From the IMG/VR virus record IMGVR_UViG_3300044632_001319: a DNA stretch of 64,000 bases; one strand, given 5' to 3'. The translations under genes and the position numbers were made by a program. Position 1 is the first letter of the stretch. Each line of letters starts with the position of its first letter. This document shows positions 1,622 through 64,000 of the stretch, one piece after another. The notes beneath the pieces are model-generated. The model was not told the DNA's origin, ran no database searches, and saw only the letters and a list, made by a program, of their open reading frames with translations. Source of the DNA: a virus.

Positions 1622-2569
1622 ATGCTTTTTAAGAATTATCCACAAATAACTTATCGTATAGGATCCAAAGATATAACATTAGTTGATATTTTTAAAAATA
1701 TAGCATTCACTAATGTAGAAAATAACAACGCATTTGATGATTACTACATTCAGGACGGAGAAAGTCCCGAAAATATATCTGCAAAGATTTATGGATCTAC
1801 ATCTTATGCTTGGATAATTTTACTAGTTAATAATATAGTGCATATCAAAAATGATTGGTTTATTAGTGCTTCAGAATTTGATCAGAGAACACAATCACAG
1901 TTGGGTGGAGATGCAATTTACATAGCAGCATTACCAGATATTCAACCTGGTGATATTATGGTTAAAGTTTTAACCGAAACTGATGGGTTTGCACAAACCG
2001 TGGATATTCAAAATTACAGACACGTTGCGGAATTTGATCGCAATCTTAGAAAAGTAAGAGGAATATCTGGTGCTGGTAATATAACACTAGGCAACTTAGT
2101 TGTTTTTGCAAGACTTAATGCAGATGGTTCTGTTGTTCCATTACAATTTAATAATCAAGCACAAACACCAACACCCACAGACTTCACAAATGTAATACAC
2201 ACAGAAAAGTACATAAACAGTGTTGATTATTTCATAACAGGAAACAACGTAGTTCTAAATCCATATTTGAATATTGGGTATCCTGGTCCTAGTGGAATTT
2301 CACCATCTACCACATTTGTTGATGCATCGGCAGGCATCTATATCAAAGACAATTTTGCGGATACCTTATTGTTCTACTATATGGATAACGAAGGTGTATT
2401 GCCATCAGGGGTATCGAAAGTATCCGTGGGTACAGAAAATTACAATAAATACATTGAGAACCAAAAAATTCGAATATTAAAACCAGAATTACTTTCTACT
2501 GTAATTTCTGCGATAGAGAATGCACTAAATGGTGACAACGTAGGAAAGATCTTTAAAGTTGAATTATAA
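1622..2569 (+). CDS. gp53: Baseplate wedge subunit (gp53-like, LysM-like motif)
   Basis: LFKNYP.I.Y start, YYIQDGESPENISAKIYGS..YAWIILLVNN, C-terminal N.KIRILKPE. Confidence 0.85.
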   Translation: MLFKNYPQITYRIGSKDITLVDIFKNIAFTNVENNNAFDDYYIQDGESPENISAKIYGSTSYAWIILLVNNIVHIKNDWFISASEFDQRTQSQLGGDAIYIAALPDIQPGDIMVKVLTETDGFAQTVDIQNYRHVAEFDRNLRKVRGISGAGNITLGNLVVFARLNADGSVVPLQFNNQAQTPTPTDFTNVIHTEKYINSVDYFITGNNVVLNPYLNIGYPGPSGISPSTTFVDASAGIYIKDNFADTLLFYYMDNEGVLPSGVSKVSVGTENYNKYIENQKIRILKPELLSTVISAIENALNGDNVGKIFKVEL

Positions 2570-5500
2570 TGGCTGACGATTTTAAAACATTAACAACAGT
2601 AAAAAACTCTCAACCAGCAACAGCATCACCTGGTGATGATTCTGTATCTTTTAATGGCAATCTAATTAAAACAACAGAATCAAGAATTCAAGAATTAACA
2701 ATAATCAAGGAAACCGATTCTGGATCTATAGATTTTAAGATTCTCCCATGGGACACAACGGTATCGGCAAGTTCGCCTTTATCATCGATTGGGTTTAAGG
2801 AATCATTATACAATGGTTGCATTTTCGGAAGCATAATTGTATTTGATATTAGAAATTGGATCGATGAATTGCTTTTCAATGGACAAGAGAAACTAAATAT
2901 CAAATTTAAAATAGGTAAGTCTGATAAGTTAATAGACATGACCTTTTTCATCTATGATGCGAAAAATATAACAGACTCTGCCAATCATCTGGAAACAATG
3001 CCAGGTAATGAGAAAGTCAGTCTTTGGGAACTTCAATTTGTGAGTTCCGAAATATTCTTACCAAACTACAACGAAACCCTAATACAAGACGACGAAGATT
3101 TCGTTGGTTACATTTCATCAAAAACTGATGAAAACAAATCACTAGTAAATGAAATATTTACAAAGTTCAATTTAAAGAAATACAAAGTCGATGATTCAAA
3201 GACTGGAGTTTGGTTAAAATTTGATCACGTTTCATATCCGTGGATGAAGCGAAAAGGTCAAATGAGAGTTCCACAGTTATTGAAATACCTTACAAACTAT
3301 GCATGGGACGGTGGTTCTGGTAAACTATACGCAGACTATTTCTGGTGGGAAGATAGAAATGGTTGGAGTTTTAGATCTGTCGGTAAGATGATTTCAGAAA
3401 ACTCAGAACCAGTAGATGGTTTTGCTGTTACCATTGACGAAACAAATCCAAATAGAATTTTTTCACTTCAAGTATTGAAAGAATATAATATTCAAAATTT
3501 ACTTGACAATGGTGCATTGTTCTCAAACTATACAAGAATAGACCCAAATTATAATAATCCATATTTGGATTTTATTGATACAAACGAATCATTGGTAACT
3601 GAAATAAATTATTACGATTACCATAAAGACTTTGAATTAACAACACTCATCGACAAATACAAACTAATACCTGATTCGTTTTCGACTGATCCGAAAACGA
3701 AAAATAGCAAGGCAAAACCATCTGCAAGGATGGACGATGACATCTATGGTTATTTTAATGAAAATTATCTGAATACACCAACACCCCAAGAATGGGATGT
3801 CTATGGTAAAACGCTCAGTGGTCCTTGGTCTACGAAAGCATGGCAACCTCAGTTTGATTCTACTGATTTAGAGTTTGATCAATTCAAGATAATACATGAA
3901 TCTATTCGCAAACCTCTAAAGATCAAAAGAGAGGAATATGCTAGAAAAAAGAATATAAAAAGAAAATGGGAAGTATATCGCTGCACGGTTTGCTGCCACG
4001 AACACGGTGCTTTAGGATCTACCGCAGATATTGCTCTATGGCAAAATCCTGGTCCACTAAACGGATCAACATATAATGCTTTGTTTGGTCCCACTGGAAT
4101 CTTTGCAGATATGGATCAATCATACAAGATTGCAGCAGCAGGATCTTTCACCGATCTAATCAACTACCAAGCAGGAAATACATTCTATGAAAGAGGACTC
4201 ACCTATTCATATGATTTGTCCAAGAGTCCATACAATCAATCTCTTGGACAATTTTTCAATCTTACAGGTCCAGAAGCACCATCTGCTTATGTCAAATATG
4301 TAATAAATCGTGCAACTAAACAATATGATATAATGATAACAAAGATAAACGAGAGAATTGCTGATCTGCAAGATTTCGTTTCAAATAGAGCACCACTTCA
4401 TAAAGAAATAGCAGACATAGTTTTTGAAAGTGTCTTGATTGATAAGAATTCTAATCTAACAAGACCTATAGATCTTTCGCAGGGATTCAAATATGTTGGC
4501 GATTCTATAGTTGGTGAAGTAGTTCCAGATTGGCCAATTAAACAACAAGAGTTTGGAATGGTTCCAGATACATCAATACCCACAGGCAAGGGTGTTGCTC
4601 AAGTTGTATTTGGTCAGCAAAATGCACAGAGAACAATTACATTTAAAGGACTTGAGGATTCTCAAGAAGATTATTGCGTTAGATGTAATGATCAAGGAAC
4701 TGGAATAGTCTGTGAACCAGTTACATATACACCACAAGGAAGACCAATTTGTTCTGGAGTTGTTTTGGGTGGTGGTTTAAACTGTGCAGATGTTAATATA
4801 ACAGTTGACGATTTAAATTGTAGACCACCAGCAGGAGAACCACGATACTGCTGCTTACGTCGCGATGCATCGCTTGCAGATCCTTTCAATCCTCAACCAT
4901 CTGTAAATTTTTGTACCGATCTTTTTGGATTACCACTGCCTGGAGAAGATCTTGATAATGAGTTTGCCTGTTACTCTTTTTTTGACCCCAGGTTCCGAGG
5001 ATCATTAGTTTCAGAATGCAGTATGTGTGCTCCATATAATCCAGATTTTGGTGGTGGTGGTTCGGGTGTTCGTGGACCCACTGGTCCACGTGGACCCACT
5101 GGACCAACTGGACCATCAGGATTGCCAACTGAGCAAGATGTACGATACATCTCACCACAATCATTCACAAATTGTTCGAACGATCCTGTTATAAGAGGTT
5201 ATATAAAATATACATCCTCAGCAAGTCAGCAATATAGTCCAATATATCTTTATGCAGCACCATATCTCTGGGATACAAATATAAAAGATTGGTCCTATAT
5301 TGATTATGGAACAGAAAGTGGTCTGATTCCATCCATAGTTGATTTTGAAATAAGACAAGAAACAATTAATTGTCTGCAATCTGGAAATTGCTACAACACA
5401 ACATGTTTAAGTTCGACAGCGATTGAAGTTCTTCGAAGAACTTGTGTTGCTGAAATACAAATACTTAAGGTAGAACTTAAACTATACGAGTATCTAAAAA

Positions 5501-7902
5501 ATAAGATTGTTGAAGAATATACATCAAAGTGGAACATAGCATATACCGAATGGTATAACAGAAATGCTTTCTTCTTCTCCAAACTACCAGGAAAATCAAT
5601 ATTCAAGTCTGAAGAAAAAGATACTGTTGGCACACCATTATCTCTCGACAATATCAAATCAATAACACGAAAAGAGATAAGAGGAAGCAGATACGAATTG
5701 TTATCTCGCTATGTTGGTATCACTGGTGCTTCTGCTGGAGAATGGTTACATTCAATATTCTTTGGTGGTAATAGTGGTTCAACATATCACCCATATTATG
5801 ATCAGGGTTATACTCGGGATGCTTATATAACATCTAGAGAACCACACGCATGGTTTAGTTTTGCGGATTCTGATGCCACGGACGATCCAACATTCTTTGT
5901 AGACAATAAACAATTTACAAATTATGGTCCAGTATATAAAGGCGAAGAATATGATGAATCTTCCGTTCTACACATAGGAACCAATGATTTATCAGATATT
6001 ACAAATATCGATAATAGAAGAATTAAAACCTATGGTAACGCACAATCCGATTTGAATACCGAAACCAATCTTTCAGATTTCAAAGATACATTTAATTTCT
6101 ACAATACGAATGGTAAAAAACCACCAAACCTAAAGAAAGAAGAAATATCTTCATATGTTCGCATAGAATTCCAAACCCCAATTGGTTTGGATAGAATTCG
6201 TGATTTTCCAAATGGGTTTATCAGAGATGCTGGTTCAGAGTATTTCTTACCATACATTGTAAATCTAACATCTGGTCCATTTGGAAGACAAGGTGTCAAA
6301 TATAATGTTGCGGTAATAGGAATGGATCCTTATGGGTTTGATGTTGCAGTCAAGAAGATAAAAGATGAACTGCCAACCAATCAAAAACTTTTAGGAATCG
6401 ATAAGGGTAATTATTATAATTGGTGGAACCACGATACAGGTTCTGTGTTGTCGAAGACCGATTATCTAACTTCAGATTACAATGGAATGGATCTCTGGCC
6501 AGAGGCAGGATTTGAAACAGATTATCCCTACTATGCATATGATGCATCACAAGAAGATCTACACGGTGGTGCATATGATTTAGATTATCATATGGGTGGT
6601 GGGTATTATTTCGAAAACGATTCACAAGATTGGATGGAATCGCTTCATCACTATGGTATGAGTTCGGGTAAGCAATTTGATCCACTTTACAGAACATCTG
6701 TTGTGGGATCATATATTCTACCAAACAGTTATAGAAAATTAAAACCACACAGATCTTGGTGGTCCTTGTTTGTTCCAAGAAATCTATTCATACCAATAAG
6801 ATTTGCAAATATGTTCAAAACTCCAAACACAAAGGCAAGAGATTTGTTTGGTGGAAAGGGAATATTTACAATTTCTCCAAACTATTGGAGAACCTGGTAT
6901 GGTAGCGAATTTGAAACTTGGTTAGAACTAGGAAAAGGAAATGCGATTAAAGATCTACTGGAAACCGAAGCACCAGATCTATCTTTCTTTGTAGATACCC
7001 CAGAAGACAAAACATCTATTTCTCCATACAACACAAATCTGAATGGATATTTTAGAGAATCGCTGATGCACTACCTTGCAGGAAATTATATTCTGTATAG
7101 ACCATCACTGGTATCCACTGAGTTGTGGAAATATGATTTAAGTGGTGAATCAGATTATGGTCTAATAACACCACCAGTTGATACTGAGTATGAAATGTTT
7201 GATCGCAATTTTGCACTACAGTTCACCGTATTTGCCAGAAACACTCGCAAATGTGAGGATATTGGTCTTAAGTGTGCAAACCCACAGGCACTACTCAAAG
7301 GACTGGTACAATCTGCGGGTGGTTGCACAGCAGACCCATATTGCAATTGTCCAGCAAAAGAGTTGATGCCAACTGAACAAGAACCCACATATCTTGAACT
7401 TCACAGATTATATCAAGAAATAAACGAATGTTCTCTTATAGAAGAAAATCTTGATTCTTCTTGGTTAGGTTGTGAATGGGCAGATCCAAATTCATCTTGC
7501 AGTTGCAACTGCCCAGAACAAGGAATTAATTTTAAGAAATACCTAGAATATAACAGAACATATTCTACTTTCTGGAATGTCCCAAATAAATTCCCACTGG
7601 TGAGAATTGCTCAACTTAGACAATTGGATTCTCAGAAAATTAAAATAAGAATAGCACCAAATGATAAGATTCAAATTGGTTCTATAGTCGAAATAATCAA
7701 CGAAAACGAATTGCCAGAAGAAACAGTGAACAAATATAAGAAGATATCAGGAAGATGGTTAGTCTCAGAGATAGATCATTTAATGCCAGGTACTATTGGT
7801 TACATAATGACCGTAACACTTGTAAGAAACAGTCTACATTATAATCCAAACGAATCTCAAGCACCAAAAGCAGTATTTGGTAAACAAGATAGAGAAGAAT
7901 AA
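2569..7902 (+). CDS. Giant baseplate hub-like protein (gp27/gpD-like termini) with large internal insertions
   Basis: N-terminal ES....G.I...D...LLFNGQE and YFWWEDRNGWSFRS; C-terminal IQIGSIVEI...KISGRWLVSEIDH...LVRNS, typical of hub proteins. Lies between gp53 and gp25. Confidence 0.6.
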   Translation: MADDFKTLTTVKNSQPATASPGDDSVSFNGNLIKTTESRIQELTIIKETDSGSIDFKILPWDTTVSASSPLSSIGFKESLYNGCIFGSIIVFDIRNWIDELLFNGQEKLNIKFKIGKSDKLIDMTFFIYDAKNITDSANHLETMPGNEKVSLWELQFVSSEIFLPNYNETLIQDDEDFVGYISSKTDENKSLVNEIFTKFNLKKYKVDDSKTGVWLKFDHVSYPWMKRKGQMRVPQLLKYLTNYAWDGGSGKLYADYFWWEDRNGWSFRSVGKMISENSEPVDGFAVTIDETNPNRIFSLQVLKEYNIQNLLDNGALFSNYTRIDPNYNNPYLDFIDTNESLVTEINYYDYHKDFELTTLIDKYKLIPDSFSTDPKTKNSKAKPSARMDDDIYGYFNENYLNTPTPQEWDVYGKTLSGPWSTKAWQPQFDSTDLEFDQFKIIHESIRKPLKIKREEYARKKNIKRKWEVYRCTVCCHEHGALGSTADIALWQNPGPLNGSTYNALFGPTGIFADMDQSYKIAAAGSFTDLINYQAGNTFYERGLTYSYDLSKSPYNQSLGQFFNLTGPEAPSAYVKYVINRATKQYDIMITKINERIADLQDFVSNRAPLHKEIADIVFESVLIDKNSNLTRPIDLSQGFKYVGDSIVGEVVPDWPIKQQEFGMVPDTSIPTGKGVAQVVFGQQNAQRTITFKGLEDSQEDYCVRCNDQGTGIVCEPVTYTPQGRPICSGVVLGGGLNCADVNITVDDLNCRPPAGEPRYCCLRRDASLADPFNPQPSVNFCTDLFGLPLPGEDLDNEFACYSFFDPRFRGSLVSECSMCAPYNPDFGGGGSGVRGPTGPRGPTGPTGPSGLPTEQDVRYISPQSFTNCSNDPVIRGYIKYTSSASQQYSPIYLYAAPYLWDTNIKDWSYIDYGTESGLIPSIVDFEIRQETINCLQSGNCYNTTCLSSTAIEVLRRTCVAEIQILKVELKLYEYLKNKIVEEYTSKWNIAYTEWYNRNAFFFSKLPGKSIFKSEEKDTVGTPLSLDNIKSITRKEIRGSRYELLSRYVGITGASAGEWLHSIFFGGNSGSTYHPYYDQGYTRDAYITSREPHAWFSFADSDATDDPTFFVDNKQFTNYGPVYKGEEYDESSVLHIGTNDLSDITNIDNRRIKTYGNAQSDLNTETNLSDFKDTFNFYNTNGKKPPNLKKEEISSYVRIEFQTPIGLDRIRDFPNGFIRDAGSEYFLPYIVNLTSGPFGRQGVKYNVAVIGMDPYGFDVAVKKIKDELPTNQKLLGIDKGNYYNWWNHDTGSVLSKTDYLTSDYNGMDLWPEAGFETDYPYYAYDASQEDLHGGAYDLDYHMGGGYYFENDSQDWMESLHHYGMSSGKQFDPLYRTSVVGSYILPNSYRKLKPHRSWWSLFVPRNLFIPIRFANMFKTPNTKARDLFGGKGIFTISPNYWRTWYGSEFETWLELGKGNAIKDLLETEAPDLSFFVDTPEDKTSISPYNTNLNGYFRESLMHYLAGNYILYRPSLVSTELWKYDLSGESDYGLITPPVDTEYEMFDRNFALQFTVFARNTRKCEDIGLKCANPQALLKGLVQSAGGCTADPYCNCPAKELMPTEQEPTYLELHRLYQEINECSLIEENLDSSWLGCEWADPNSSCSCNCPEQGINFKKYLEYNRTYSTFWNVPNKFPLVRIAQLRQLDSQKIKIRIAPNDKIQIGSIVEIINENELPEETVNKYKKISGRWLVSEIDHLMPGTIGYIMTVTLVRNSLHYNPNESQAPKAVFGKQDREE
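5071..5121 (+). repeat. Collagen-like GPT/GPR repeat encoded by a near-perfect 18-bp tandem duplication
   Basis: cgtggacccactggtcca cgtggacccactggacca encodes RGPTGPRGPTGPTGPSG. Confidence 0.85.
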
Positions 7903-7910
7903 ATAATAAT

Positions 7911-8306
7911 ATGCTAAAACGAAATATAAGTTACGCAGACATACCATTCTTCATCAGTAAAAATCCATTTACTGGGGATTTGAATTTGACCCGCGACTTG
8001 AACGCAATTCGTCAATCGATAAAGAATATCATCATGACGAATGTCGGAGAACGAGGGTTTGATTATAAATTTGGATGCAATATCTATGATTATTTGTTTG
8101 AAAATTTTACCATCGATATGGTTGTCAGGGTACAAGCAATAATTGCTGGTAATATTCAAAGATACGAAGGTAACAGAGTTGGGATAAATGATATCAAAAT
8201 TATTGATAATTCTCCTGCAAATGAAATAAATATAGTTGTGGATTATAATATTCCTGATGCTGGTATTTCTGACATAATCAACGTAAGCATAGCAAGGACC
8301 AGGTAA
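7911..8306 (+). CDS. gp25: Baseplate wedge subunit gp25
   Basis: NP.TGDL...D.NAIRQSIKNIIMTN.GER.F...FG. Confidence 0.92.
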   Translation: MLKRNISYADIPFFISKNPFTGDLNLTRDLNAIRQSIKNIIMTNVGERGFDYKFGCNIYDYLFENFTIDMVVRVQAIIAGNIQRYEGNRVGINDIKIIDNSPANEINIVVDYNIPDAGISDIINVSIARTR

Positions 8307-13695: not shown

Positions 13696-13709
13696 TTTAG
13701 GATAATTAA

Positions 13710-52894: not shown

Positions 52895-52899
52895 TAAAA

Positions 52900-54417
52900 A
52901 TGAATGCTACAATTTATAATGCTGATTATTTTGGTTTTGGTCCTATAGACTTAGATTTTCCATGTGAAATACATTTTACACGATTTGGAAATACTGATTC
53001 TGCGTTACATTTCAAATACAATAAATTAGAACCAGTTTATGATAACATTAATTTTACTAATAATAGTTCATTTAAAGTTTTTGTTTGTTCTAACGAACCT
53101 TCAACTTCTACTAATAGAGAAACAAATGTTAATATTATTACAAATTCTAATCAATATGATTTAATATTAACTTCTGAAGAAGAAATAATCAATAACTGTG
53201 ATAATGCTGTATTTTTTCCATATGGTGGAACTTGGTTAAATAAAAAGAAAGAAAATCATTTAGATTCGTTAGGTGTATTTGATGAATCACAAATACCAAT
53301 TCTTAATAAAGAATATAATGTATCTTTTTTATCAACATCACATCTAGGAAAAATAGGATACAATTTAAGATGTATGATTTGGAATCAAAGAAATAAAATT
53401 GAATTGAATACTAAATTTTATTCTAGTACAAGACATCCAACAAATACATTAAATTTTTCAAATACATTACATGATGGATTAATACCAAATGACGATAAAA
53501 TCAATTTGTTTAATTCTATGTTTAGTATTGCTGTAGAAAGTAGTTACGAAAAAAACTACTTTACAGAAAAACTAATTGATTGTTTGTTAACAAAAACAGT
53601 TCCTATTTATTGGGGATGTCCTAATATCAGTGATTTTTTCGATGATCGTGGAATTATATCGTTTAAAACATATGAAGAATTTTTAATAAAGATAAATTCT
53701 ATAAATGAAAAAACTTATAATGAAATGAAACCATATATTGATGCTAATTATGAAAAAGCAAAAGAATATGGTAGAGATTTATTTCACAGAGTAAAAGAAC
53801 AAATAATAAAATATAGAAATGAAAAATTATCTAAAACTGATATTTTATGGACAATAGGAATATTGACAGTTCCTGAAAGAAAAGATAAGTTATCAAGATT
53901 AATCAAAAAGATAGACGATCAAGTTCTAGTTAGCATTGCAAATAGAATTGAATTGATTATTGTTAGTGATGATAAAACTAGAACTGTTGGTGATAAAAGA
54001 AATGAAGTTTTGGACAAAGCAAATGGCAAATATGTATGTTTTATTGATGACGACGACTTGATATCACCAAATTACATTCCTAAAATTTTTAATAAATTGC
54101 ATAAAGAAATATATGATGGAATTGGATTTTGGGGTATGTACTATGTTTCAGAAAACCCTACAATGTTGTTCAATCATGCAAACATAAATAATGGACACTT
54201 CAAGAAAGATGGAAAGCAATATCGTCCATTAAATCATTTAAATCCAGTAAGAACTGAAATTGCAAAAGCAATTAGATTCCCTGATAAAAATTATGCTGAA
54301 GATTCGGATTATTGTGATCGTTTGTTGGAATCAGGTTTAGTGAAAAGTGAGTATAATTTTGATGAAGTCATGTACCATTACTTGTGGTCGCCACAAGAAA
54401 CATTAACACAAAAATGA
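52900..54417 (+). CDS. GT10-like plus GT2 fusion glycosyltransferase
   Basis: FSIAVE....NYFTEKLIDC...KTVPIYWG, then G.KRN......A.GKYV.FIDDDD and EDSD. Confidence 0.8.
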   Translation: MNATIYNADYFGFGPIDLDFPCEIHFTRFGNTDSALHFKYNKLEPVYDNINFTNNSSFKVFVCSNEPSTSTNRETNVNIITNSNQYDLILTSEEEIINNCDNAVFFPYGGTWLNKKKENHLDSLGVFDESQIPILNKEYNVSFLSTSHLGKIGYNLRCMIWNQRNKIELNTKFYSSTRHPTNTLNFSNTLHDGLIPNDDKINLFNSMFSIAVESSYEKNYFTEKLIDCLLTKTVPIYWGCPNISDFFDDRGIISFKTYEEFLIKINSINEKTYNEMKPYIDANYEKAKEYGRDLFHRVKEQIIKYRNEKLSKTDILWTIGILTVPERKDKLSRLIKKIDDQVLVSIANRIELIIVSDDKTRTVGDKRNEVLDKANGKYVCFIDDDDLISPNYIPKIFNKLHKEIYDGIGFWGMYYVSENPTMLFNHANINNGHFKKDGKQYRPLNHLNPVRTEIAKAIRFPDKNYAEDSDYCDRLLESGLVKSEYNFDEVMYHYLWSPQETLTQK

Positions 54418-55151
54418 ATAAACTTTATATTAGACAATATGCTGGACTCGGAGATATTTTTTTTCTACAAAAACTAGTAAATAATTTTATAGATTTAGGT
54501 TATGATGAAATAATCTGGCCAGTTATTAAACATTATGAATATTTAAAAGAATATAATGAAAATGAAAAAATAAAGTATATTTCAATAGATTCTATGAGTG
54601 ATGAACTACAAAACTTGTATTTGCAGAATACAATTTCTAAAGTAAATGATACTAGTTTATATCTCCCAATAGATAAACTTTGTCATGTTGAAGGAAATTG
54701 TAATAATTTTATGGAACAAAAATATCATTCATTTCAGTTAAATTTTAATGATTGGCAAAAATATTGTAAATTTAAAAGATACCCAGAGCGAGAAAATAAA
54801 TGTAGAGAATATTTTGGCATCGATAAGGGGGATAAATTTATATTTGTTAATAATATTTTTGCTTCTCCTCCAGAAACTTATATTAGAGAGATGAATTATT
54901 CTACTAATTTTAAAATAGTTGAACACAAACTAGAGCATTTGAATATGTTTAAATTTTTTGATTTTTCATGGTTATTGGAAAATGCAGAAGAAATTCATAC
55001 TGTAGAAACTTCATTATGTTACTTGATTGAATGTTTAGATACAAAAGCTTCTTTGAATTTATATTCGAGAAAAATAAATGGATATAATCAATATTTAAAT
55101 TTTGATTATATTAAAAATATTTACAAAAAAGAATGGAATAAAATATTATGA
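54414..55151 (+). CDS. Putative GT-B glycosyltransferase-like protein
   Basis: GLGD.F N-terminus, LLENA.EIH.VETS; island context. Confidence 0.5.
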   Translation: MNKLYIRQYAGLGDIFFLQKLVNNFIDLGYDEIIWPVIKHYEYLKEYNENEKIKYISIDSMSDELQNLYLQNTISKVNDTSLYLPIDKLCHVEGNCNNFMEQKYHSFQLNFNDWQKYCKFKRYPERENKCREYFGIDKGDKFIFVNNIFASPPETYIREMNYSTNFKIVEHKLEHLNMFKFFDFSWLLENAEEIHTVETSLCYLIECLDTKASLNLYSRKINGYNQYLNFDYIKNIYKKEWNKIL

Positions 55152-55519
55152 TGGTAGAAGTTTCAGTTGGTGAAGTAATTGATAAATATACTATTTTAGA
55201 AATCAAGGAAGAACATATTACAGATTCTTCCAAGTTAAGTAATATCAAAAAAGAAAAATTTATAATTCAAAAAGAACTTGAAAAGATGAATTATCTTAAT
55301 AAGTTTGCTTCTGAAATAGCAGAACTGAAAGATATTAATTCACATTTGTGGAAGATTGAAGATGACATCAGAATCAAAGAATCAAGATTAGAATTCGATG
55401 AAGAATTTATTGAACTTGCACGATCTGTCTATATGACAAATGATCGTAGATTTGCTGTCAAGAATCGAATTAATACGTTATCAAATTCAAATATTAAAGA
55501 AGAAAAGTCGTATTCTTAA
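55148..55519 (+). CDS. DUF6165-like protein
   Basis: VSVGEVIDK.TILEIK, L..IN..LW.IED.IR, FIELARSVY.TND.R...K..IN. Confidence 0.8.
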   Translation: MMVEVSVGEVIDKYTILEIKEEHITDSSKLSNIKKEKFIIQKELEKMNYLNKFASEIAELKDINSHLWKIEDDIRIKESRLEFDEEFIELARSVYMTNDRRFAVKNRINTLSNSNIKEEKSYS

Positions 55520-55536
55520 TACAATATGGATTCATT

Positions 55537-56184
55537 ATGCCCAATAATAGAGAAGAACATATAAATTATACGAGAAGAGAATGGGAAACTTGGTCAATTT
55601 TTAAATTTATTCTTGATAAATTGAATAATTTGAATATAAAGACTGTTGTTGATCTTGGAGCAAATGTTGGAGAAGTCTCTAATGTATTTTTTGAGAAGAT
55701 ACCATCAATAGAAAATTTATATCTGTTTGAACCACAAAATGATAATTTTAACTTTATCTTCGATAGATTTCAAAATAATTCAAAATTTAAATTATTTAAA
55801 TATGGAATTTATTATGGTAAGGAACAATCAAACTTGTATAGACAAGATTCAAATGTTGGTGGATACTCCGTAGAAAAAAATATAATAGAAGAATATGAGA
55901 CTGTAGATCTTAAACCTTTAGAATATTTTAATATTAAAAATATTGATTTTATAAAAATTGATATCGAAGGTGCTGAATATAATGTTTTGCAAAATTCAAC
56001 TATTTTGAAAGAAATTCCATATGTGCTGGTAGAAGCACATCCACATGGATTTGATTTGTCGATATTGAATAAAATAAATTTGCATCAATATTTTTTAAAT
56101 TATTTAACTGAACATCTTAATACACACGATTTGATTTATTGCGATTCTGTTCAATATCAATATTTTTTGGAGAAAAAGAAATGA
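55537..56184 (+). CDS. FkbM-family SAM methyltransferase
   Basis: VDLGANVG, FEP, IKIDIEGAE. Confidence 0.88.
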   Translation: MPNNREEHINYTRREWETWSIFKFILDKLNNLNIKTVVDLGANVGEVSNVFFEKIPSIENLYLFEPQNDNFNFIFDRFQNNSKFKLFKYGIYYGKEQSNLYRQDSNVGGYSVEKNIIEEYETVDLKPLEYFNIKNIDFIKIDIEGAEYNVLQNSTILKEIPYVLVEAHPHGFDLSILNKINLHQYFLNYLTEHLNTHDLIYCDSVQYQYFLEKKK

Positions 56185-56963
56185 AAGTATTAGATATTGT
56201 TTTACAGGGCCCTATATGGAAAACTACAGTGGATACTGCAAAGTATTATCTGGAATTGCCATTTGTCAATAAAGTTATTATATCCACTTGGGATGATGAA
56301 CCCATTAATGAATATAATGAAAATGGTATAGAAGTTATAAAATCAAATAAACCTGTTAATGGAGTTGGTAATATGAATTACCAAATAGTTTCTTCGTTTG
56401 AAGGAATTAAAAAAACAGAGTCCAAACTTGTAGCAAAAATGAGATCTGATCAAATAATTCATAAAGACAGTATGAATTATCTTAACAATTTTATAACTGA
56501 TAATATAGATGATACTGATTTAATGTATTCTGATGGATCAAAAAGAAAAGGAAATGTATTTGTGATAGGAATGAATAAAATATTTCCATTCCATCCACAA
56601 GACCATATCTTTTGGGGATATAGGGAAGATGTTTATAGGGTGTTTGATATACCACTAAAACCAGCAAGGATGAAAAGAGACACGGCAGATTTCACAAAAG
56701 AAGTGCGATGTAACATTTATTTGGGAGCAATGTATTTTAAGCAGTTTTATCCAGAAGTGGAAAAGTATATTGATAATTTTGAAGATTATTTGGTAGACAA
56801 TCCAAAAAAGTTAGATGCTCTAATCCTGTCAGAAAAAACAAGAGATAAAGTTTTTAAAGTTCTTCCTAAATTTAGTATGTTTTGGGAGAAATATAAATGG
56901 GATGCATATCCATATTCTTGGTATGGGTCTATGGGTGAATACTATTATGAAGATTTAAAATGA
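56181..56963 (+). CDS. WavE-like LPS/glycan synthesis protein
   Basis: IVLQGP, VIISTW, N.NYQI.SS..G, K.RSD, FHP.DH.F.G. Confidence 0.75.
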   Translation: MKVLDIVLQGPIWKTTVDTAKYYLELPFVNKVIISTWDDEPINEYNENGIEVIKSNKPVNGVGNMNYQIVSSFEGIKKTESKLVAKMRSDQIIHKDSMNYLNNFITDNIDDTDLMYSDGSKRKGNVFVIGMNKIFPFHPQDHIFWGYREDVYRVFDIPLKPARMKRDTADFTKEVRCNIYLGAMYFKQFYPEVEKYIDNFEDYLVDNPKKLDALILSEKTRDKVFKVLPKFSMFWEKYKWDAYPYSWYGSMGEYYYEDLK

Positions 56964-57691
56964 TTTCATTTAATGGTCACTCTGGATGCTCTATAAAGAT
57001 GTTATCGGATGGTATTGTCAGAAAAACATCATCCAATACTGATTATAACAGTAGATTACAAAATCAGATGTTAAAGCAAAAACAGTTTTATCATCCAGTT
57101 ATAAGGACAACGGATATAGTTGATTGTGGTTATAATTCAGATGGATTATTTTATTTTGATATGAAATATATTCGTGGTGTAAATCTATCGATATATTTTC
57201 AACAAAATACTTTAAATTCTTGCATGAAAATAATAGATTTGTTTTCTAGTTTTAATACTGAAAACCAAATTGATATTAGTGACGCAATTAATAAAAAAAT
57301 AAGAACTATTAATATTGATGAAGAATCATTGAAATTAATTACAGATCAAAGATGGACGGTATCTAGTGGATATTGTCATGGTGATTTGACATTCGAAAAT
57401 GTTCTGATAAATAGTGATGGTGTCTATCTTATAGATTTTTTAGATTCTTTTGTCGAATGTCCAATTATTGATGAATCTAAATTGTTGCAAGATTCTTTTT
57501 GTTATTGGTCATTTAAAAACAATATTCCAAAAAGAAAACTTATTACGGTTTGTGATAAGTTTGACACCAGACAACACTATTGTATGTTGTTGTTGCATTT
57601 ATTTAGAATAATACCATATGCAAATGCAGCAAAGAAAGAAAATTTATTATGTATGATAAATCGAGTGAAGACCAAAATAAACCAATTTTAA
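56960..57691 (+). CDS. APH/choline-kinase-like phosphotransferase
   Basis: GHSGC, VRK, CHGDLTFEN.L, LIDF, D..KL.QD. Confidence 0.8.
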   Translation: MISFNGHSGCSIKMLSDGIVRKTSSNTDYNSRLQNQMLKQKQFYHPVIRTTDIVDCGYNSDGLFYFDMKYIRGVNLSIYFQQNTLNSCMKIIDLFSSFNTENQIDISDAINKKIRTINIDEESLKLITDQRWTVSSGYCHGDLTFENVLINSDGVYLIDFLDSFVECPIIDESKLLQDSFCYWSFKNNIPKRKLITVCDKFDTRQHYCMLLLHLFRIIPYANAAKKENLLCMINRVKTKINQF

Positions 57692-58719
57692 TAATACCAG
57701 CTGCTGGAAAGTCATCTAGATTTCAAAATATGAAACCAAAATGGATGCTTACACATCCATCTGGAAAATTAATGATTGAAAAAGTAGTAGAAGGATTATC
57801 TATTAATGATTATTCTATGATCTATTTTGTAGTTTTGAAAGAGCATTGTCAAAAATATGAGGCAGATGTAATATTGAAACAATGTTTTCATAACATATCA
57901 CATAAAGTGGTAATACTGGAAGAGTCTACAAACAGTAGTCCAGAAACTGTATATAATTGTTTAATAAAAGAAAATATTAGTGGATCAATAGTAGTAAAGG
58001 ATTGTGATTGTTTAGTATCATATAATAGTCCAAATATGACAAATTTTGTTGTTGGTATAGATGTCAATTCCACTATTAAAAATATTCAACAAAAATCATT
58101 TATATTAGTCAATCAAGACAATATTATACAAGAAATAGTAGAAAAGAAAATAGTTTCTGATAAGATTTGTCTTGGGGTGTATGGGATGAATTCTTATAAT
58201 TTTATAAAATCATTTTTTCGCTTGAATCAAACTATAGGAACAGAATTATATTTTAGTCATATAATTTCAGACATTATTGATACTGATAATAAAGTTTTTG
58301 TTGAGATAGATGCAACAGAATTTATAGATTGGGGAACTAAAGAAGAATGGTTTTCTTCGGCAAACCTTAAAAATACATATTTTGTAGACATTGATGGTGT
58401 CATGTTGGTAAATACTGGAAAATACGGAAGTAAAAATTGGTATAATACAATAGAACCTATAGAACAAAATATATCAACAATCAAACAGTTATCGGATGAA
58501 GGTCATGAAATTATTTTTGTAACTTCAAGACCTTTCGATGCACTTCAAAAATTTAAAGATCTATTGAAGAATAGAAATATAAAATATAAAACTATAATTG
58601 ATTCGTGTCTACATTCTAAACGAATCATCATTAATGATTTTGCAGCAAGTAATCCATTTCCAAGTTGCTTGGCAATAAATATTCCAAGAGATGAACTTAT
58701 TGAATCTTATTTGAGGTAA
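57649..58719 (+). CDS. Sugar nucleotidyltransferase fused to a HAD phosphatase
   Basis: IIPAAG.SSRF...PK, KDCD, DWGT; C-terminal FVDIDG, TSR, IIND. Confidence 0.8.
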   Translation: MYDKSSEDQNKPILIIPAAGKSSRFQNMKPKWMLTHPSGKLMIEKVVEGLSINDYSMIYFVVLKEHCQKYEADVILKQCFHNISHKVVILEESTNSSPETVYNCLIKENISGSIVVKDCDCLVSYNSPNMTNFVVGIDVNSTIKNIQQKSFILVNQDNIIQEIVEKKIVSDKICLGVYGMNSYNFIKSFFRLNQTIGTELYFSHIISDIIDTDNKVFVEIDATEFIDWGTKEEWFSSANLKNTYFVDIDGVMLVNTGKYGSKNWYNTIEPIEQNISTIKQLSDEGHEIIFVTSRPFDALQKFKDLLKNRNIKYKTIIDSCLHSKRIIINDFAASNPFPSCLAINIPRDELIESYLR

Positions 58720-58721
58720 TT

Positions 58722-59717
58722 ATGAATATAATGGTCACAGGAGCAGCAGGTGGTATTGGATCTACTGTTTGTAATTCTTTAGATTTCCATGGTCATAAAT
58801 TGACTATGATTGATAATTTAGAATATGGTTATATAGAAAATATAAAATACAATAGACAATATGATAATTTTTACAAATATGATATTCGCGAATTGAATCC
58901 AAATAAGTTTCAACCAACCATAGAATATGATGCTATTTTGCATTTGGCAGCAATCACATCACTACCAGAATGTGAAAACAATGTTCAAAAAACTATTTCG
59001 GTCAATTTAGAGGGAACTGCTAATATTTTAGAATTTGCCAGAAAACGAAATATTCCTTATGTGTTTTTTACTAGCACCAGTGCTGTTTATGAAAATAATA
59101 AACAAGACACATTAGAGGAATCATATCCAGTATCTCCTAGACTTTGGTATTCTTTATCTAAAAAAATGTCTGAAGATTTGTGTGAATCGTATAGAAATAA
59201 TTATGGGATGACGATAACCACTGCTAGATTGTTTAATGTTTTTGGACCAAAACAGGATATGTATAGAAAAAATCCACCATTAATAAATTATCTTGTTAGG
59301 GAATTTATTAATAATAGACAACCTATTTTGCATTCAACTGGATTACAACGAAGAGATTATATAAACATTGATGATGTTATTGGATTTTTAAATTCTTGTT
59401 TGGTAAAACAACCAAATATGATTTTAAATGTTTGTACTGGTAAAACAATAACAGTTCGAGATATAGTTGATATTGTTAGAAAGACTTTAAATGTAAAAAT
59501 CGAACCAATATACAGAGATGCAACAATGTTGTGGGATTCATATCCAGAATTATTTTCTGGCAATTATTCTCTGTCGAAAGATGTGGTATTCAGTGAAACT
59601 AATAAAGTATGTAGAGGATCAAATCTTCTAGCACAACAAATACTCGGATGGAAACCTAGTATTGAGATCGATGAATCCATACAACAAACAGTCTTAAAAA
59701 TTAAGGATAATATATGA
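58722..59717 (+). CDS. NAD-dependent nucleotide-sugar epimerase/dehydratase (extended SDR)
   Basis: VTGAAGGIG, HLAA, STSAVY, YSLSK, RLFNVFGP, RDYI.I.D. Confidence 0.9.
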   Translation: MNIMVTGAAGGIGSTVCNSLDFHGHKLTMIDNLEYGYIENIKYNRQYDNFYKYDIRELNPNKFQPTIEYDAILHLAAITSLPECENNVQKTISVNLEGTANILEFARKRNIPYVFFTSTSAVYENNKQDTLEESYPVSPRLWYSLSKKMSEDLCESYRNNYGMTITTARLFNVFGPKQDMYRKNPPLINYLVREFINNRQPILHSTGLQRRDYINIDDVIGFLNSCLVKQPNMILNVCTGKTITVRDIVDIVRKTLNVKIEPIYRDATMLWDSYPELFSGNYSLSKDVVFSETNKVCRGSNLLAQQILGWKPSIEIDESIQQTVLKIKDNI

Positions 59718-59780
59718 ACATTGATACTGTTGTATGGTTGATTATTCATCAAATTCTAGTCCAAATGCTGATGTTGTCTT

Positions 59781-59788
59781 TATAAATA
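59781..59788 (+). promoter_or_regulatory. T4-type late promoter inside the glycan island
   Basis: TATAAATA followed by an AAAGGA RBS and ATG at 59809. Confidence 0.55.
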
Positions 59789-59808
59789 CAAGAAAGGAAT
59801 TATAGAAT

Positions 59809-60441
59809 ATGAATTTTAACCGTGATCATGGAACAGCGATTCCAAAAAATGATTTCAATCAAAATATTGATTGTGAAAGCATAAAGAATGTTAATACTAG
59901 AATTTTGGGTGGCGGTGCTTCTCAAAATTTTGTTGCATTTAAACTTCTAGAAAACTACATTGCATATGAAAAACCAGAATATGTAGTTGAAATTGGTTCA
60001 CAAAAAGGTGGTCTATCCGTATATCTTGGAACTATTGCATGTGTAGCTGAACAATTTTTATTTCACACATTTGATATCACCAAATCAGATTGGAATAATA
60101 GAGCTCATGAAGGTGCTGGACATTGGTTTGAAAAAATGGAATCAATCTGTCCATTTTGTAAATCATTCGAATCTGATATATTCTCAGAATATTCTTATAA
60201 TTTGATCTTTGAGAATATTAAAAAATATAAAACTTTAATTATATGTGATGGGGGAAATAAAGCTAAAGAAGTTTATATGTATTCTTCTTTACTTAAGAGT
60301 GGTGATATGATTATGGCGCATGATTTTGGACATGAAATTTTTGACCAAAATATCAATTATAACATATTACAACCACATGAACCATTTAATCAAAGATTTA
60401 TTGATAATAAGACTTTATTTAAAACATTTGTGAGAATATAA
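59809..60441 (+). CDS. Class I SAM methyltransferase-like protein (CmcI/Methyltransf_24-like)
   Basis: VEIGS.KGG, TFDI, ICDGG, LKSGD...AHD. Confidence 0.7.
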   Translation: MNFNRDHGTAIPKNDFNQNIDCESIKNVNTRILGGGASQNFVAFKLLENYIAYEKPEYVVEIGSQKGGLSVYLGTIACVAEQFLFHTFDITKSDWNNRAHEGAGHWFEKMESICPFCKSFESDIFSEYSYNLIFENIKKYKTLIICDGGNKAKEVYMYSSLLKSGDMIMAHDFGHEIFDQNINYNILQPHEPFNQRFIDNKTLFKTFVRI

Positions 60442-61028
60442 TGAATATTGATTTTGAACTAAAAACCCATTGGTTGTGGGAACATATTTGGGGAAATACA
60501 AATCGACCAGATTGGAAAATGCCAAACATATTTTGTCATATTTTATTTAAATATGCTAATGATATTGGAAGATTGTCTAACATAAATCATGCAATTGAAA
60601 CTGGAACTTATGAGGGAAATAGTTCTATTTGTTTTTCTTATTTATTCGAAACGGTTGACACCATAGAAAAATATCCAGATCATAATCCGTATAAACACAA
60701 ATCATTAATTTCCATTCACAATGATATTAAAAATACAAATCCAAATATTAATTTTCATTATGGAAATAGTCCAGATCATATGAGAGAAATTTTTATTAAA
60801 AATCCAGATACTGATTATTTTATCCTATTAGATGCTCATACTGGCAGGGAATCTCCTGTCATGGAAGAGTTAAAATGTATAAAGGATTATAGTAATAGTA
60901 ATAATCATGTAATAATGATTGATGATTGTAATACAATTTCTGTAGATTATGATAAAGTTCTTGAAATAAATCCAAAATACAATATCATACATACTGGTAT
61001 TGGAAGTGACATAGTTTTAATTTATTGA
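60441..61028 (+). CDS. SAM methyltransferase-like protein
   Basis: IETGTY.G, TIE, GNS, LDAH, P...EL..I, IMIDD. Confidence 0.7.
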   Translation: MNIDFELKTHWLWEHIWGNTNRPDWKMPNIFCHILFKYANDIGRLSNINHAIETGTYEGNSSICFSYLFETVDTIEKYPDHNPYKHKSLISIHNDIKNTNPNINFHYGNSPDHMREIFIKNPDTDYFILLDAHTGRESPVMEELKCIKDYSNSNNHVIMIDDCNTISVDYDKVLEINPKYNIIHTGIGSDIVLIY

Positions 61029-61038
61029 GGCAAATATT

Positions 61039-62058
61039 ATGAAAAAGATTCTTGTACTTGGCGGTGGTGGTTTTATCGGTTCTCATCTTGTAAAACGATT
61101 CAAGAGAGAAGGTCATTGGGTAAGAGTTGTTGATCTTAAATATCCAGAATTTTCAAAATCTCCAGCAGATGATTTTATCATAGGAGATTTGAGACTACAA
61201 CAAATTTGTGATAAGGCATTTGATATTCAGTTTGATGAAGTTTATCAACTAGCAGCAGATATGGGTGGTGCTGGTTATATTTTCACAGGAGAGCACGATG
61301 CTGATATCATGCATAATTCTGCTCTTATTAATTTAAATGTCGTAGAGCGATGCCATAAGACTAAAGTGGGAAAGGTTTTCTACTCGTCTTCGGCATGTAT
61401 GTATCCAGCATACAATCAAGAAGATCCTGACAACCCCAAATGCTCGGAGGAGTCTGCATATCCAGCAGCACCAGATAGCGAGTATGGTTGGGAAAAACTA
61501 TTCAGCGAAAGACTATATCTCGCATATGCTCGCAATCACGGAATGAGGGTTAGAATTGCTCGTTATCACAACATCTTTGGACCAGAAGGAACATGGCAGG
61601 GTGGAAAAGAAAAAGCACCAGCAGCAATGTGTAGAAAGGTAGCAGAAGCAAATAATAGTTCAATGATTGAGGTATGGGGAGATGGACAACAAACACGATC
61701 ATTCTTATACATCGATGACTGTATTGATGCTACAATTCGACTTATGAATTCAGATTGTACAGTTCCAGTTAATATTGGTTCTGAGGAAATGATCAAGATT
61801 AATGATCTGGCAGAAATGGCAATTGAAATATCTGGAAAAAATATTGATATTAAAAATGTAAAGGGACCAGTTGGGGTTCGTGGAAGAAATTCAGATAATA
61901 AATTATTTAATAGAATGGTTGGATCTCCAAATTATCGTTCACTTCGTGTTGGTATGGAAACAACCTATGATTGGATAGAAACACAAGTTTTAAATCGAAA
62001 TAAAAAAGAATATTGTAGTTCTGCTCAAATGGATGTAGAAGACCGTTTTCGTAGATGA
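61039..62058 (+). CDS. GDP-mannose 3,5-epimerase-like SDR
   Basis: GGGGFIG, QLAADMGGAGYI, YSSSACMYP, YGWEK, RYHNIFGP.GTW.GGKEKAPAA.CRK, VWGDG.QTRSF, GP.GVRGRNS. Confidence 0.88.
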   Translation: MKKILVLGGGGFIGSHLVKRFKREGHWVRVVDLKYPEFSKSPADDFIIGDLRLQQICDKAFDIQFDEVYQLAADMGGAGYIFTGEHDADIMHNSALINLNVVERCHKTKVGKVFYSSSACMYPAYNQEDPDNPKCSEESAYPAAPDSEYGWEKLFSERLYLAYARNHGMRVRIARYHNIFGPEGTWQGGKEKAPAAMCRKVAEANNSSMIEVWGDGQQTRSFLYIDDCIDATIRLMNSDCTVPVNIGSEEMIKINDLAEMAIEISGKNIDIKNVKGPVGVRGRNSDNKLFNRMVGSPNYRSLRVGMETTYDWIETQVLNRNKKEYCSSAQMDVEDRFRR

Positions 62059-62228
62059 AAAAGAATAATAAAATTTACTACTTGATTGGATATCTTGACG
62101 GGTATCCAATTATTTCTATACCAACCTATAAGAAACAATTCAATAGAAATAAATTAATAAAAAATTATTCTCTAGATAAAAATGTTAAATTTAAAATACA
62201 AACTAAAGATGTTTTTATTGGTTGGTAA
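62055..62228 (+). CDS. Small basic hypothetical protein (57 aa)
   Basis: Hand-translated MKKNNKIYYLIGYLDGYPIISIPTYKK...FIGW*; ATGA overlap with the epimerase stop. Confidence 0.45.
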   Translation: MKKNNKIYYLIGYLDGYPIISIPTYKKQFNRNKLIKNYSLDKNVKFKIQTKDVFIGW

Positions 62229-62246
62229 ACTTATAAGGACTATAAT

Positions 62247-62852
62247 ATGACTTGGAAAAATTCACAAGGCGGATACTCACAATATGGAGAAGATTTAATC
62301 TTAAAAGAAATATTATCAGAAAATGGATATTTTTTAGAAATAGGTTCTTTTTGTCCATTTATATTTTCAAATACAAGATTTTTAGTGGATCGTGGATGGG
62401 GTGGATGCTATGTAGATGGATGTTCATTTGCTATTGGACGTTTTATTCAAGAATATAAAGATAATGACAAAATTAAAATTGTACAGGCACTCATAGGAGA
62501 TGCTGACAGATTTATCAAATTTTATAATAGTATTACTGATGCAATTTCGTCTACAGATATAAATCATGCTGATAAATGGAAAAAAAGTGGTTCTCAATTC
62601 AGAGAAGTCTATACTGTTATGATTAGTATGAATACATTACAAACTATTTTACCACCTGTTATTGATTTTATCAACATTGATGTTGAAGGACAAAGTGCTT
62701 ATCTTTCTACATTGATAAATTATGATCAATTACAAACTAAAGTTGTTTGTATAGAACATGATAATTCAATTGATATGATTAATTCTTATATGAGTAAATT
62801 TAATTTTACAGTTCATTATACAAATGCTACAAATATAATCTATAAGAGATAA
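62247..62852 (+). CDS. FkbM-family methyltransferase
   Basis: YSQYGED, FLEIG, SNT, GW.G, FINIDVEG, CIEH. Confidence 0.85.
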   Translation: MTWKNSQGGYSQYGEDLILKEILSENGYFLEIGSFCPFIFSNTRFLVDRGWGGCYVDGCSFAIGRFIQEYKDNDKIKIVQALIGDADRFIKFYNSITDAISSTDINHADKWKKSGSQFREVYTVMISMNTLQTILPPVIDFINIDVEGQSAYLSTLINYDQLQTKVVCIEHDNSIDMINSYMSKFNFTVHYTNATNIIYKR

Positions 62853-62896
62853 AACTATTTTATAAATTAACCTAAATACAATAAAGGATTTATACA

Positions 62897-64000
62897 ATGA
62901 AACCAAAACTAACACTCTGCATGATCGTCAAGAATGAATCTCATATTATTCATGAGTGTCTTGAATCTATTTACAAGTATATTGATTATTGGGTAGTATC
63001 AGATACTGGTTCTACAGACGGAACACAAGACATCATAAGAAAGTTTTTTGAGTCAAAGGGAATTCCTGGCGAAATTCACCAAGACGAATGGAAAAACTTT
63101 GGACATAATCGCACGTTAGCATTAAATCATTGCCAAGGCAAAGCAGAATATGCGTGGATGATCGACGCAGATGATAAGGTAGAAGGAAATTTTAAGTTTC
63201 CAGAAAATCCAGATGGTGATGCATATGTTGTAAGAATGGGAAGAGAAGACTTTTCTTGGTGGAGAACCCAGATATTCAAGGTAGATTCTAAGTGGGAATA
63301 TCGTGGTGTTCTTCATGAATATCCATCATGCACGACAAACGATAAACCAGTATTGGTTAAAATCGAAGGAAAGTACAACATCAATGCGAGAACGCTTGGT
63401 GCAAGAAATGTTGGTATTACTGTCATTGAGAAGTACAAGAAAGATGCTGAACTCCTAGAGAAAGCATTGATTGATGAACCTACAAATACCAGATATCAGT
63501 TTTATCTTGCACAATCGTATTTTGATTCTCAGCAATGGGAAAAGGCAATTGAAGCATATATGAGAAGAGCACAATCTGGTGGATGGCCTGAGGAAGTTTA
63601 TTATTCATTGTATAGAATTGCAATTTGCCGTGCAATGTTAGATAGACCATGGTCGGAGATTCAAGCATCGTTTCTTGATGCATACAACTATCGACCAATT
63701 CGTGCAGAACCACTAATTCATATCGCACAAGCACTGAGAACAAAATTTGATCAACCAGCAGCAGCATTTGTTTTTGCTAGAATCGCAGCAGAAATACCAT
63801 TCCCAACAACTGAGATCTTGTTTGTTCCTGATCTGTTATATCGATTTACTGCTCTTGATGAATTGGGTGCTGTTGCTCATGCTGCTGGAAGACCAGAACT
63901 TGGATATCTTGCATGTAAAAAACTGCTAGAAGATGGTCGTGTTCCAGAGGAACACCTGACAAGAGTTCAAAATAATTACAAACATTACCAAACAATCATG
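62897..64000 (+). CDS. GT2 glycosyltransferase with TPR repeats, runs off the window end
   Basis: Hand-translated MKPKLTLCMIVKNESHII.ECLES...DTGSTDGT...NFGHNR...IDADD...GVLHE...RYQFYLAQSY. Preceded by CCTAAATA (62871) and AAGGA. Confidence 0.88.
   Translation, partial: MKPKLTLCMIVKNESHIIHECLESIYKYIDYWVVSDTGSTDGTQDIIRKFFESKGIPGEIHQDEWKNFGHNRTLALNHCQGKAEYAWMIDADDKVEGNFKFPENPDGDAYVVRMGREDFSWWRTQIFKVDSKWEYRGVLHEYPSCTTNDKPVLVKIEGKYNINARTLGARNVGITVIEKYKKDAELLEKALIDEPTNTRYQFYLAQSYFDSQQWEKAIEAYMRRAQSGGWPEEVYYSLYRIAICRAMLDRPWSEIQASFLDAYNYRPIRAEPLIHIAQALRTKFDQPAAAFVFARIAAEIPFPTTEILFVPDLLYRFTALDELGAVAHAAGRPELGYLACKKLLEDGRVPEEHLTRVQNNYKHYQTIM

Follow-up and report, generated by a model that had tools for sequence, protein, structure and literature searches.

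A sugar-enzyme island ending in an SgtA-like glycosyltransferase gene: candidate glycosylation of Thr-rich collagen-like tail fibres in a T4-like freshwater myovirus

In abundant aquatic T4-like phages it is common to find islands of sugar enzymes next to the tail-fibre genes, and these islands are usually read as tools directed at the host surface. Published accounts of such phages assign the glycosyltransferases interleaved with the tail fibres to modification of the host O-chain or of DNA (PMC7029224, PMC12801897). The Clostridioides difficile enzyme SgtA, by comparison, acts on BclA3, a collagen-like protein of the spore exosporium: this 358-amino acid (aa) protein with a GT-A domain and TPRs is encoded immediately upstream of bclA3, and in vitro it places beta-O-linked N-acetylglucosamine (GlcNAc) onto Thr, and also Ser, of GPT-repeat peptides (PMC7157674). 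GmaR, which likewise combines a glycosyltransferase (GT) domain with TPRs, places O-GlcNAc on flagellin (PMC9638930), and glycosylation of virions is established for mycobacteriophages (Freeman et al. 2023, as cited in PMC12619734 and PMC12801897). Here we compare with these systems a locus in a 64,000-nucleotide (nt) stretch of viral DNA, IMG/VR record IMGVR_UViG_3300044632_001319 (the whole stretch is called the window below), which is part of a T4-like freshwater myovirus and which closes with an island of sugar enzymes at 51412-64000 whose last gene encodes a GT2 glycosyltransferase with TPRs (GT2-TPR). The explanation that we favour, and hold to be narrowly probable, is that this SgtA-like enzyme O-glycosylates Thr-rich collagen-like tail fibres late in infection and in the cytoplasm, the glycan probably being supplied and elaborated by the island. 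A literature search found no paper tying GT2-TPR to phage collagen fibres.

The direct observations concern homology, fold, promoter boxes, gene order and motif statistics. The enzyme at the centre of them is encoded as follows:

62897-64000 (+): SgtA/GmaR/SunS-like GT2-TPR, putative protein glycosyltransferase; 403 aa in full, the window end cutting the gene

Pfam recognises its GT2 domain (PF00535, E 8e-13) and returns weak TPR matches, and its only sequence relatives in the PDB at E<0.01 are GmaR (4e-11, over the N-terminal GT domain; the best match) and SunS/ThuS. By BLASTP it aligns with C. difficile SgtA, the sequence of which we took from a metagenome where it was located by a published primer, at 24% identity over 297 aa (E 8e-20, residues 5-280), an alignment that spans the GT-A domain and the first TPRs. 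The nearest NCBIfam model is that of the SunS family, TIGR04195, whose equivalog cut-off of 350 bits lies far above the 48.9 bits obtained. An AlphaFold2 model (22 homologues; mean predicted local distance difference test score, pLDDT, 89) consists of a GT-A domain followed by helical repeats, with helical pairs over residues 176-383 at a pLDDT of about 90, and a Foldseek search with this model places SunS/ThuS first, over the full length (E 1.6e-17), with TarS next (4e-8). The GT-A metal-binding motif (D90, D92, D93) and the DTGSTD segment are invariant across 22 homologues. An earlier reading of the window, made from its letters alone and called here the sequence-only reading, had taken the enzyme to prime Ser or Thr, possibly Cys, within a G-x-[S/T/C] motif of the virion proteins. 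The core of that claim has indirect support: an identity as a protein-type glycosyltransferase linked to Thr-rich collagen fibres is supported by the SgtA homology, the SunS/ThuS-like predicted fold, the late boxes found in relatives and the adjacency of collagen genes; the motif is treated separately below.

Collagen-like repeats are present in the window itself, in four tail genes:

5056-5127 (+): short collagen run of 8 triplets inside a 1777-aa tail protein (2569-7902)
17223-17321 (+): Thr-rich collagen run of 11 triplets at the N-terminus of fibre gene 17181-21044, which has PHROG tail-fibre matches
21107-21196 (+): Thr-rich collagen run of 10 triplets at the N-terminus of fibre gene 21044-24118, which has PHROG tail-fibre matches
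24151-24249 (+): Thr-rich collagen run of 11 triplets at the N-terminus of fibre gene 24109-27060, which has PHROG tail-fibre matches

Thr occupies 50% of the Y positions of Gly-X-Y in the runs of these genes (2569, 17181, 21044 and 24109), which at 8-11 triplets did not reach significance for Pfam PF01391. Much longer (GPT)n blocks lie just past the window end, and the Thr-rich collagen fibres claimed in the sequence-only reading are real. They were found on a 155-kb NCBI contig (L084), reached by exact protein look-up and 100% identical to the window over 11,104 nt, in which the GT2-TPR stop codon is followed in order by TATAAATA, a 442-aa tail-fibre gene, a 142-aa gene and a 709-aa collagen tail fibre (Pfam Collagen E 3.5e-20) in which eight (GPT)n blocks each close with GAD or GSD, and then by further fibre genes and an RCC1-repeat protein. 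The gene after C. difficile sgtA carries GAT/GPT blocks punctuated by GAD, and GXT blocks closed by GAD (or GSD) are a layout common to the 709-aa fibre (L084 13005-15134) and BclA3 (L256 3147-5201). Two side observations on the fibre region of the window may be recorded: residues 823-889 of the product of fibre gene 21044-24118 weakly match Lcl_C, the C-terminal domain of the Legionella collagen-like protein Lcl (PF07603, E 1e-6, under cut-off), and the four proteins of the region (17181-28584) are unusually Cys-rich, at 3-8% Cys, for virion parts assembled in the cytoplasm.

The same pairing of enzyme and collagen gene recurs among relatives. IMG/VR contains 157 contigs with GT2-TPR homologues of 53-81% identity. 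Around the 67 distinct GT2-TPR genes among them, 67 of the 357 downstream open reading frames (ORFs) are collagen ORFs as against 4 of 650 upstream (p 2e-27); when the loci are clustered at 70% identity, a collagen gene lies <=6 kb downstream in 8 of the 11 informative clusters. The repeats of these relatives have Thr at 43% of Y positions, GNT, GPT and GAT being the commonest triplets. In Acidobacteriota, Binatia, Deltaproteobacteria and Actinomycetota, bacterial homologues of 36-46% identity closely follow GXT collagen genes confirmed by Pfam, and many genomes of non-tuberculous Mycobacterium have a GT2-TPR homologue with a PE-PGRS gene (Pfam PE plus PGRS) directly upstream of it on the same strand (L112, L143, L145, L152, L161 and others, with PE-PGRS at about 6000-7400 and the match at 8001). 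This gene order raises the possibility that an SgtA-like enzyme glycosylates some PE-PGRS proteins. Of the Gly-repeat ORFs, 24 fall within 2.5 kb of the enzyme gene and 5 further off (p 5e-7). The unrelated jumbo phage Tunturi_5 (L167), a Tunturiibacter phage with an acidobacterial host, carries its homologue, gp35 (6998-8101), 3.7 kb from the tail-fibre gene gp29 (11810-15014), which contains long (GPT)n runs. Four unannotated genes, each of about 280 aa, lie between the two.

The sequence-only reading had also named three late-promoter-like boxes for the island. One of them holds and a second is a candidate variant; with the factor that would use such boxes they are:

45060-45632 (+): gp55 late sigma factor, which would read TATAAATA boxes (phrog_234, E 2e-56)
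59781-59788 (+): T4-type late promoter box TATAAATA, 28 nt before gene 59809
62871-62878 (+): CCTAAATA, candidate variant of the late-promoter box, placed 25 nt ahead of the start of GT2-TPR

With TATAAATA at that distance and gp55 in the window, gene 59809 has the make-up of a T4-type late unit; the spacing of the box equals that of the boxes before the gp13 (29167) and sheath (33912) genes, and genes 59809-62058 are thereby preceded by a perfect late box. The total count of TATAAATA in the window is not above chance; of the 5 copies on the + strand, 4 are placed 15-60 nt ahead of a start codon (p about 1e-5). The box before GT2-TPR may be a variant, its position being aligned with TATAAATA in relatives. 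CTAAATA occurs in six + strand copies, four of which lie 15-60 nt before starts (p 3e-5), at 39039 and 39055 (both before the scaffold gene), 50954 (regA) and 62872 (GT2-TPR), which suggests that, in this phage group, CTAAATA is a variant late or middle promoter box. The third proposed box, CATACATA at 51385, is present as a sequence and nothing backs a promoter role for it. Across 67 distinct GT2-TPR genes of relatives, TATAAATA is found 11-60 nt upstream of GT2-TPR in 31% and NATAAATA in 45%, compared with 2.2% and 4.5%, respectively, for the other (upstream) island genes (Fisher p 2e-14 for the TATAAATA contrast).

The island as a whole comprises 15 co-directional, tightly packed genes located after regA, with a guanine-plus-cytosine (GC) content of 25-32% against 34-39% in the rest of the window and with almost no DNA similarity to known phages. 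The claim of more than 12 kb of glycosyltransferases, methyltransferases and sugar-nucleotide enzymes is borne out by Pfam. Upstream of GT2-TPR the genes are:

51412-52245 (+): GT10-like (fucosyltransferase-type) glycosyltransferase, the first island gene after regA (Pfam PF00852 E 5e-9; no transmembrane segment)
52235-52894 (+): ORF of unknown family, 219 aa (no Pfam or PHROG match)
52900-54417 (+): two-domain glycosyltransferase, GT10-like plus GT2 (PF00852 E 4.9e-6 at 205-260; PF00535 E 5.6e-10 at 352-445)
54384-55151 (+): ORF of unknown family, 255 aa (no Pfam or PHROG match)
55148-55519 (+): DUF6165 protein (Pfam PF19662 E 6e-11)
55537-56184 (+): FkbM-type methyltransferase (Pfam PF05050 E 2e-12)
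56139-56963 (+): WavE-like glycan synthesis protein (Pfam PF07507 E 1.2e-9)
56960-57691 (+): small kinase-like protein, possibly a sugar kinase (weak APH, RIO and TCAD9 matches, under curated cut-offs)
57649-58719 (+): possible fusion of a nucleotidyltransferase and a HAD phosphatase (weak Pfam matches: NTP_transf_3 E 0.005, Hydrolase_3 E 9e-4)
58722-59717 (+): SDR NDP-sugar dehydratase/epimerase (Pfam Epimerase E 4.6e-43; no NCBIfam equivalog at cut-off)
59809-60441 (+): possible CmcI/rhamnosyl O-methyltransferase-like protein (Pfam PF04989 E 0.002, under cut-off)
60441-61028 (+): ORF of unknown family, 195 aa (no Pfam match)
61039-62058 (+): SDR epimerase/reductase, nearest to GDP-L-fucose synthase (Pfam Epimerase E 1.3e-46; NCBIfam Fcl 110 bits, cut-off 500)
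62247-62852 (+): possible second FkbM-type methyltransferase (Pfam PF05050 E 5.7e-4, under cut-off)

Three of the island proteins are thus of unknown family by Pfam, and NCBIfam does not allow the sugar pathway to be named, all SDR matches being far under their cut-offs. Further sugar enzymes are encoded past the fibre genes: on a 99.55% identical contig these are a sulfotransferase fusion, an FkbM fusion, a PfkB kinase, a cytidylyltransferase-like protein, an epimerase and a cupin, and in L250 (10942-20148, the same phage past the window end) a 1101-aa RCC1-repeat protein is accompanied by this second sugar-enzyme cluster. For the 596-aa fusion Pfam confirmed the sulfotransferase part, and the TPR and GT9 parts were left without confirmation. 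By its gene content the second cluster resembles an ADP-heptose-type pathway with sulfation, and the fibre cluster therefore has sugar-modifying enzymes on both of its sides.

In the course of events that we infer, in which acceptor and sugar, the later extension and whatever the phage gains from it are all conditional, GT2-TPR would be expressed late, at the head of the tail-fibre gene cluster, and its TPR domain would bind unassembled fibre chains in the cytoplasm of the infected cell. The GT-A domain would then set the first sugar on Thr (or Ser) of the Gly-X-Thr repeats, as SgtA does on BclA3, and the other transferases and methyltransferases of the island would probably extend and cap it, so that they would elaborate and methylate a protein-linked glycan; the second cluster past the fibre genes may contribute as well. 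The outcome would be a virion with glycosylated fibres.

The rest of the window agrees with a T4-like phage. Its long ORFs are all on the + strand, and PHROGs identify T4-type structural genes for baseplate wedge proteins, fibres, the neck proteins gp13/14/15, terminase, a short sheath, tube, portal, scaffold and major head protein, followed after the head genes by UvsY, UvsW, the late sigma factor gp55, gp47/46, clamp and clamp loader, and regA. The nearest DNA matches are cyanomyophages, at no more than 67-70% identity in the head/tail core. Directly after the major head protein lies a second tail-tube-family protein (41692-42318; phrog_45, E 7e-32), the other tube gene being at 35199. The tail sheath (33945-35177) has just 410 aa, as against 659-754 aa in T4 and cyanophages; its sheath-family match is limited to residues 182-401 and its N-terminal part, predicted to be helical, holds a G-x-T-A at residue 42 and a G-S-[C/S]-A at residue 87 that are kept in most relatives.

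The sequence-only reading had further noticed that G-x-[S/T], often followed by Gly or Ala, is dense in the virion proteins and not in the replication proteins, and shuffled controls confirm the contrast. In 25 virion proteins, collagen runs left out, we counted 72 G-x-[STC]-[GA] motifs against 27.5 expected from per-protein shuffles (z about 9), compared with 5 against 5.5 in the non-structural proteins, while the other 22 orderings of the same residue classes gave ratios of 0.8-1.4. The excess is real, and the fibre proteins of relatives repeat it (982 motifs against 361 expected, ratio 2.7). What it means is another matter, and we consider it rather probable that it reflects a structural grammar of proteins rich in Gly, Ser and Thr, such as turns, helix N-caps, strand edges and degenerate collagen-like triplets, and not a sequon; such a grammar is compatible with glycosylation of the fibres. 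The residues around G-x-[ST] fit this explanation, hydrophobic ones being preferred at -2, +1 and +5 and any of G, F, A and Y at +3, with charged ones depleted. The five sheath sites agree with it as well, since they fall into loops or at the start of helices in a model of mediocre quality (pLDDT 66) used for secondary structure only. The ratio is 0.84 in T4 and 1.6 in two cyanophages that lack the enzyme, and over the syntenic gp18 span, where counts are small, it falls from 2.0-2.3 in the window and its relatives to 1.4-1.7 in cyanophages and 1.0 in T4; in this comparison the close relatives are all enzyme-positive and the known enzyme-negatives are distant. A purely structural origin sits less easily with the restriction of the excess to one residue order, above its controls and recurring in the relatives' fibres, with the mostly lineage-specific position of the window's core-protein sites in variable segments, with the G-S-[C/S]-A of one sheath site, which 20 of 21 relatives keep, and with the acceptance of both Thr and Ser by SgtA.

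One could also speculate that the SgtA-like enzyme recognises a minimal G-x-[S/T]-[G/A] and would lay a glycan coat over capsid, sheath, baseplate and fibres, made of methylated deoxyhexose and possibly heptose or sulfated sugars from the two clusters flanking the fibre genes, its clade being a general modifier of Gly-repeat surface proteins including mycobacterial PE-PGRS. We hold this to be rather improbable. The virion-wide sequon of the sequence-only reading, covering capsid, sheath and baseplate, is unproven, since cyanophages without the enzyme show a weaker excess and the sites lie in ordinary structural contexts, and its proposal of Cys as a target finds no footing either: Cys is present at 8 of the 72 sites, near the roughly 10% that composition predicts (an estimate from per-protein figures).

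Returning to fibre glycosylation, several observations weigh against it. The window's own box before GT2-TPR, CCTAAATA, is non-consensus, about half of the relatives have no recognisable box there, and a late box precedes just 2% of the other island genes in relatives; genes 51412-59717 adjoin regA almost without gaps and may therefore be transcribed earlier. Three of the 11 clusters have no nearby collagen gene, two megaphage homologues have none within 7 kb, and the synteny in relatives is partly inherited and not independent. The phage is known from metagenomes only. Neither donor nor acceptor can be read from homology at 24% identity to SgtA and a SunS score far under its cut-off, and the GT10, WavE and SDR enzymes belong to families typical of lipopolysaccharide (LPS)/O-antigen pathways.

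The last of these points, together with the late boxes missing from most island genes, leads to the main rival, in which the island remodels a host surface glycan during infection (LPS, O-antigen, capsule or a host glycoprotein) and blocks superinfection or the sticking of progeny to debris, the adjacency to the fibres being that of two variable regions side by side. It is the published interpretation of glycosyltransferase and LPS genes among the tail-fibre genes of pelagimyophages and cyanomyophages (PMC7029224; PMC12801897), and we judge it unlikely here. No Pfam family of an initiating phosphoglycosyltransferase, flippase, polymerase or ligase was matched among the 15 island proteins, and none of the 15 has a predicted membrane segment, no 19-aa hydropathy peak reaching 1.6; this absence of membrane segments is weak support, because peripheral enzymes of LPS/O-antigen pathways lack them too. 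Also against it, the characterised relatives of GT2-TPR all act on proteins or peptides, a late promoter is frequent before GT2-TPR, and the pairing with collagen recurs in unrelated bacteria and in a jumbo phage.

A different target was also considered, with GT2-TPR modifying a host protein, a non-virion phage protein or a secreted glycopeptide in the manner of SunS, and the rest of the island consisting of unrelated acquired genes. SunS/ThuS are indeed the top structural matches, and the low GC content and near-absent DNA similarity to known phages suggest horizontal acquisition, but the called neighbours of the gene are sugar enzymes and fibre genes only, with no glycocin-like precursor or exporter seen among them, and the collagen association holds across lineages, which leaves this explanation highly doubtful. 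That the island glycosylates phage DNA against host restriction, a frequent role of phage glycosyltransferases for which multi-sugar DNA glycans are known (as cited in PMC12619734), is exceedingly improbable, as the window showed no base-hydroxymethylation gene, the TPR-bearing enzyme falls among transferases that act on proteins and peptides, and the late-promoter and fibre-gene links misfit a role coupled to replication.

If fibre glycosylation is true, the phage could depend on a glycan of its own making for recognising its host, for the stability of its fibres and for withstanding proteases or grazers, and many metagenomic phage "LPS genes" would need to be re-read. Through the link to SgtA and BclA3 the idea is open to direct test with peptides and recombinant enzyme. 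In bacteria, the repeated occurrence of the clade beside collagen-like and PE-PGRS genes hints at a broader class of glycosylated Gly-repeat surface proteins that has been little studied.

Set against the known systems, the locus shares with the glycosyltransferase/LPS islands of cyanomyophages and pelagimyophages an aquatic T4-like setting and variable islands that mix sugar enzymes with tail-fibre genes; the papers on those islands assign host surface or DNA modification, and a GT2-TPR homologue was found in none of the cultured cyanophages of a 50,697-record collection. As in the mycobacteriophages of Freeman et al. 2023, to the extent that the citing papers describe them, phage-encoded glycosyltransferases would modify virion proteins, which is predicted here; there the glycans are on the C-termini of capsid or tail-tube subunits of siphoviruses, while here they would likely be on collagen-like fibres of a T4-like myovirus and be made by another enzyme family. 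The glycocin S-/O-glycosyltransferases SunS/ThuS provide the best full-length fold match and the nearest NCBIfam model, and they differ in the score (48.9 bits against 350), in the glycocin precursor that the phage gene lacks nearby and in that Cys is not enriched at the phage motif sites. Listeria GmaR has the same order of a GT domain followed by TPRs, is cytoplasmic and acts on a filament-forming protein, as is predicted for the phage enzyme, but its target is flagellin and it has extra linker and antirepressor domains, an extension missing from the phage protein. The closest parallel is SgtA/BclA3, with a GT-A domain followed by TPRs in about 360-400 aa, homology over both domains, and an enzyme gene that directly precedes one carrying GAD-punctuated GXT blocks. 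The phage version differs in its 24% identity, its phage late operon, its presumed tail-fibre targets and its activity, which is predicted from sequence, and it adds to the enzyme a large set of transferases, methyltransferases and sugar-nucleotide enzymes.

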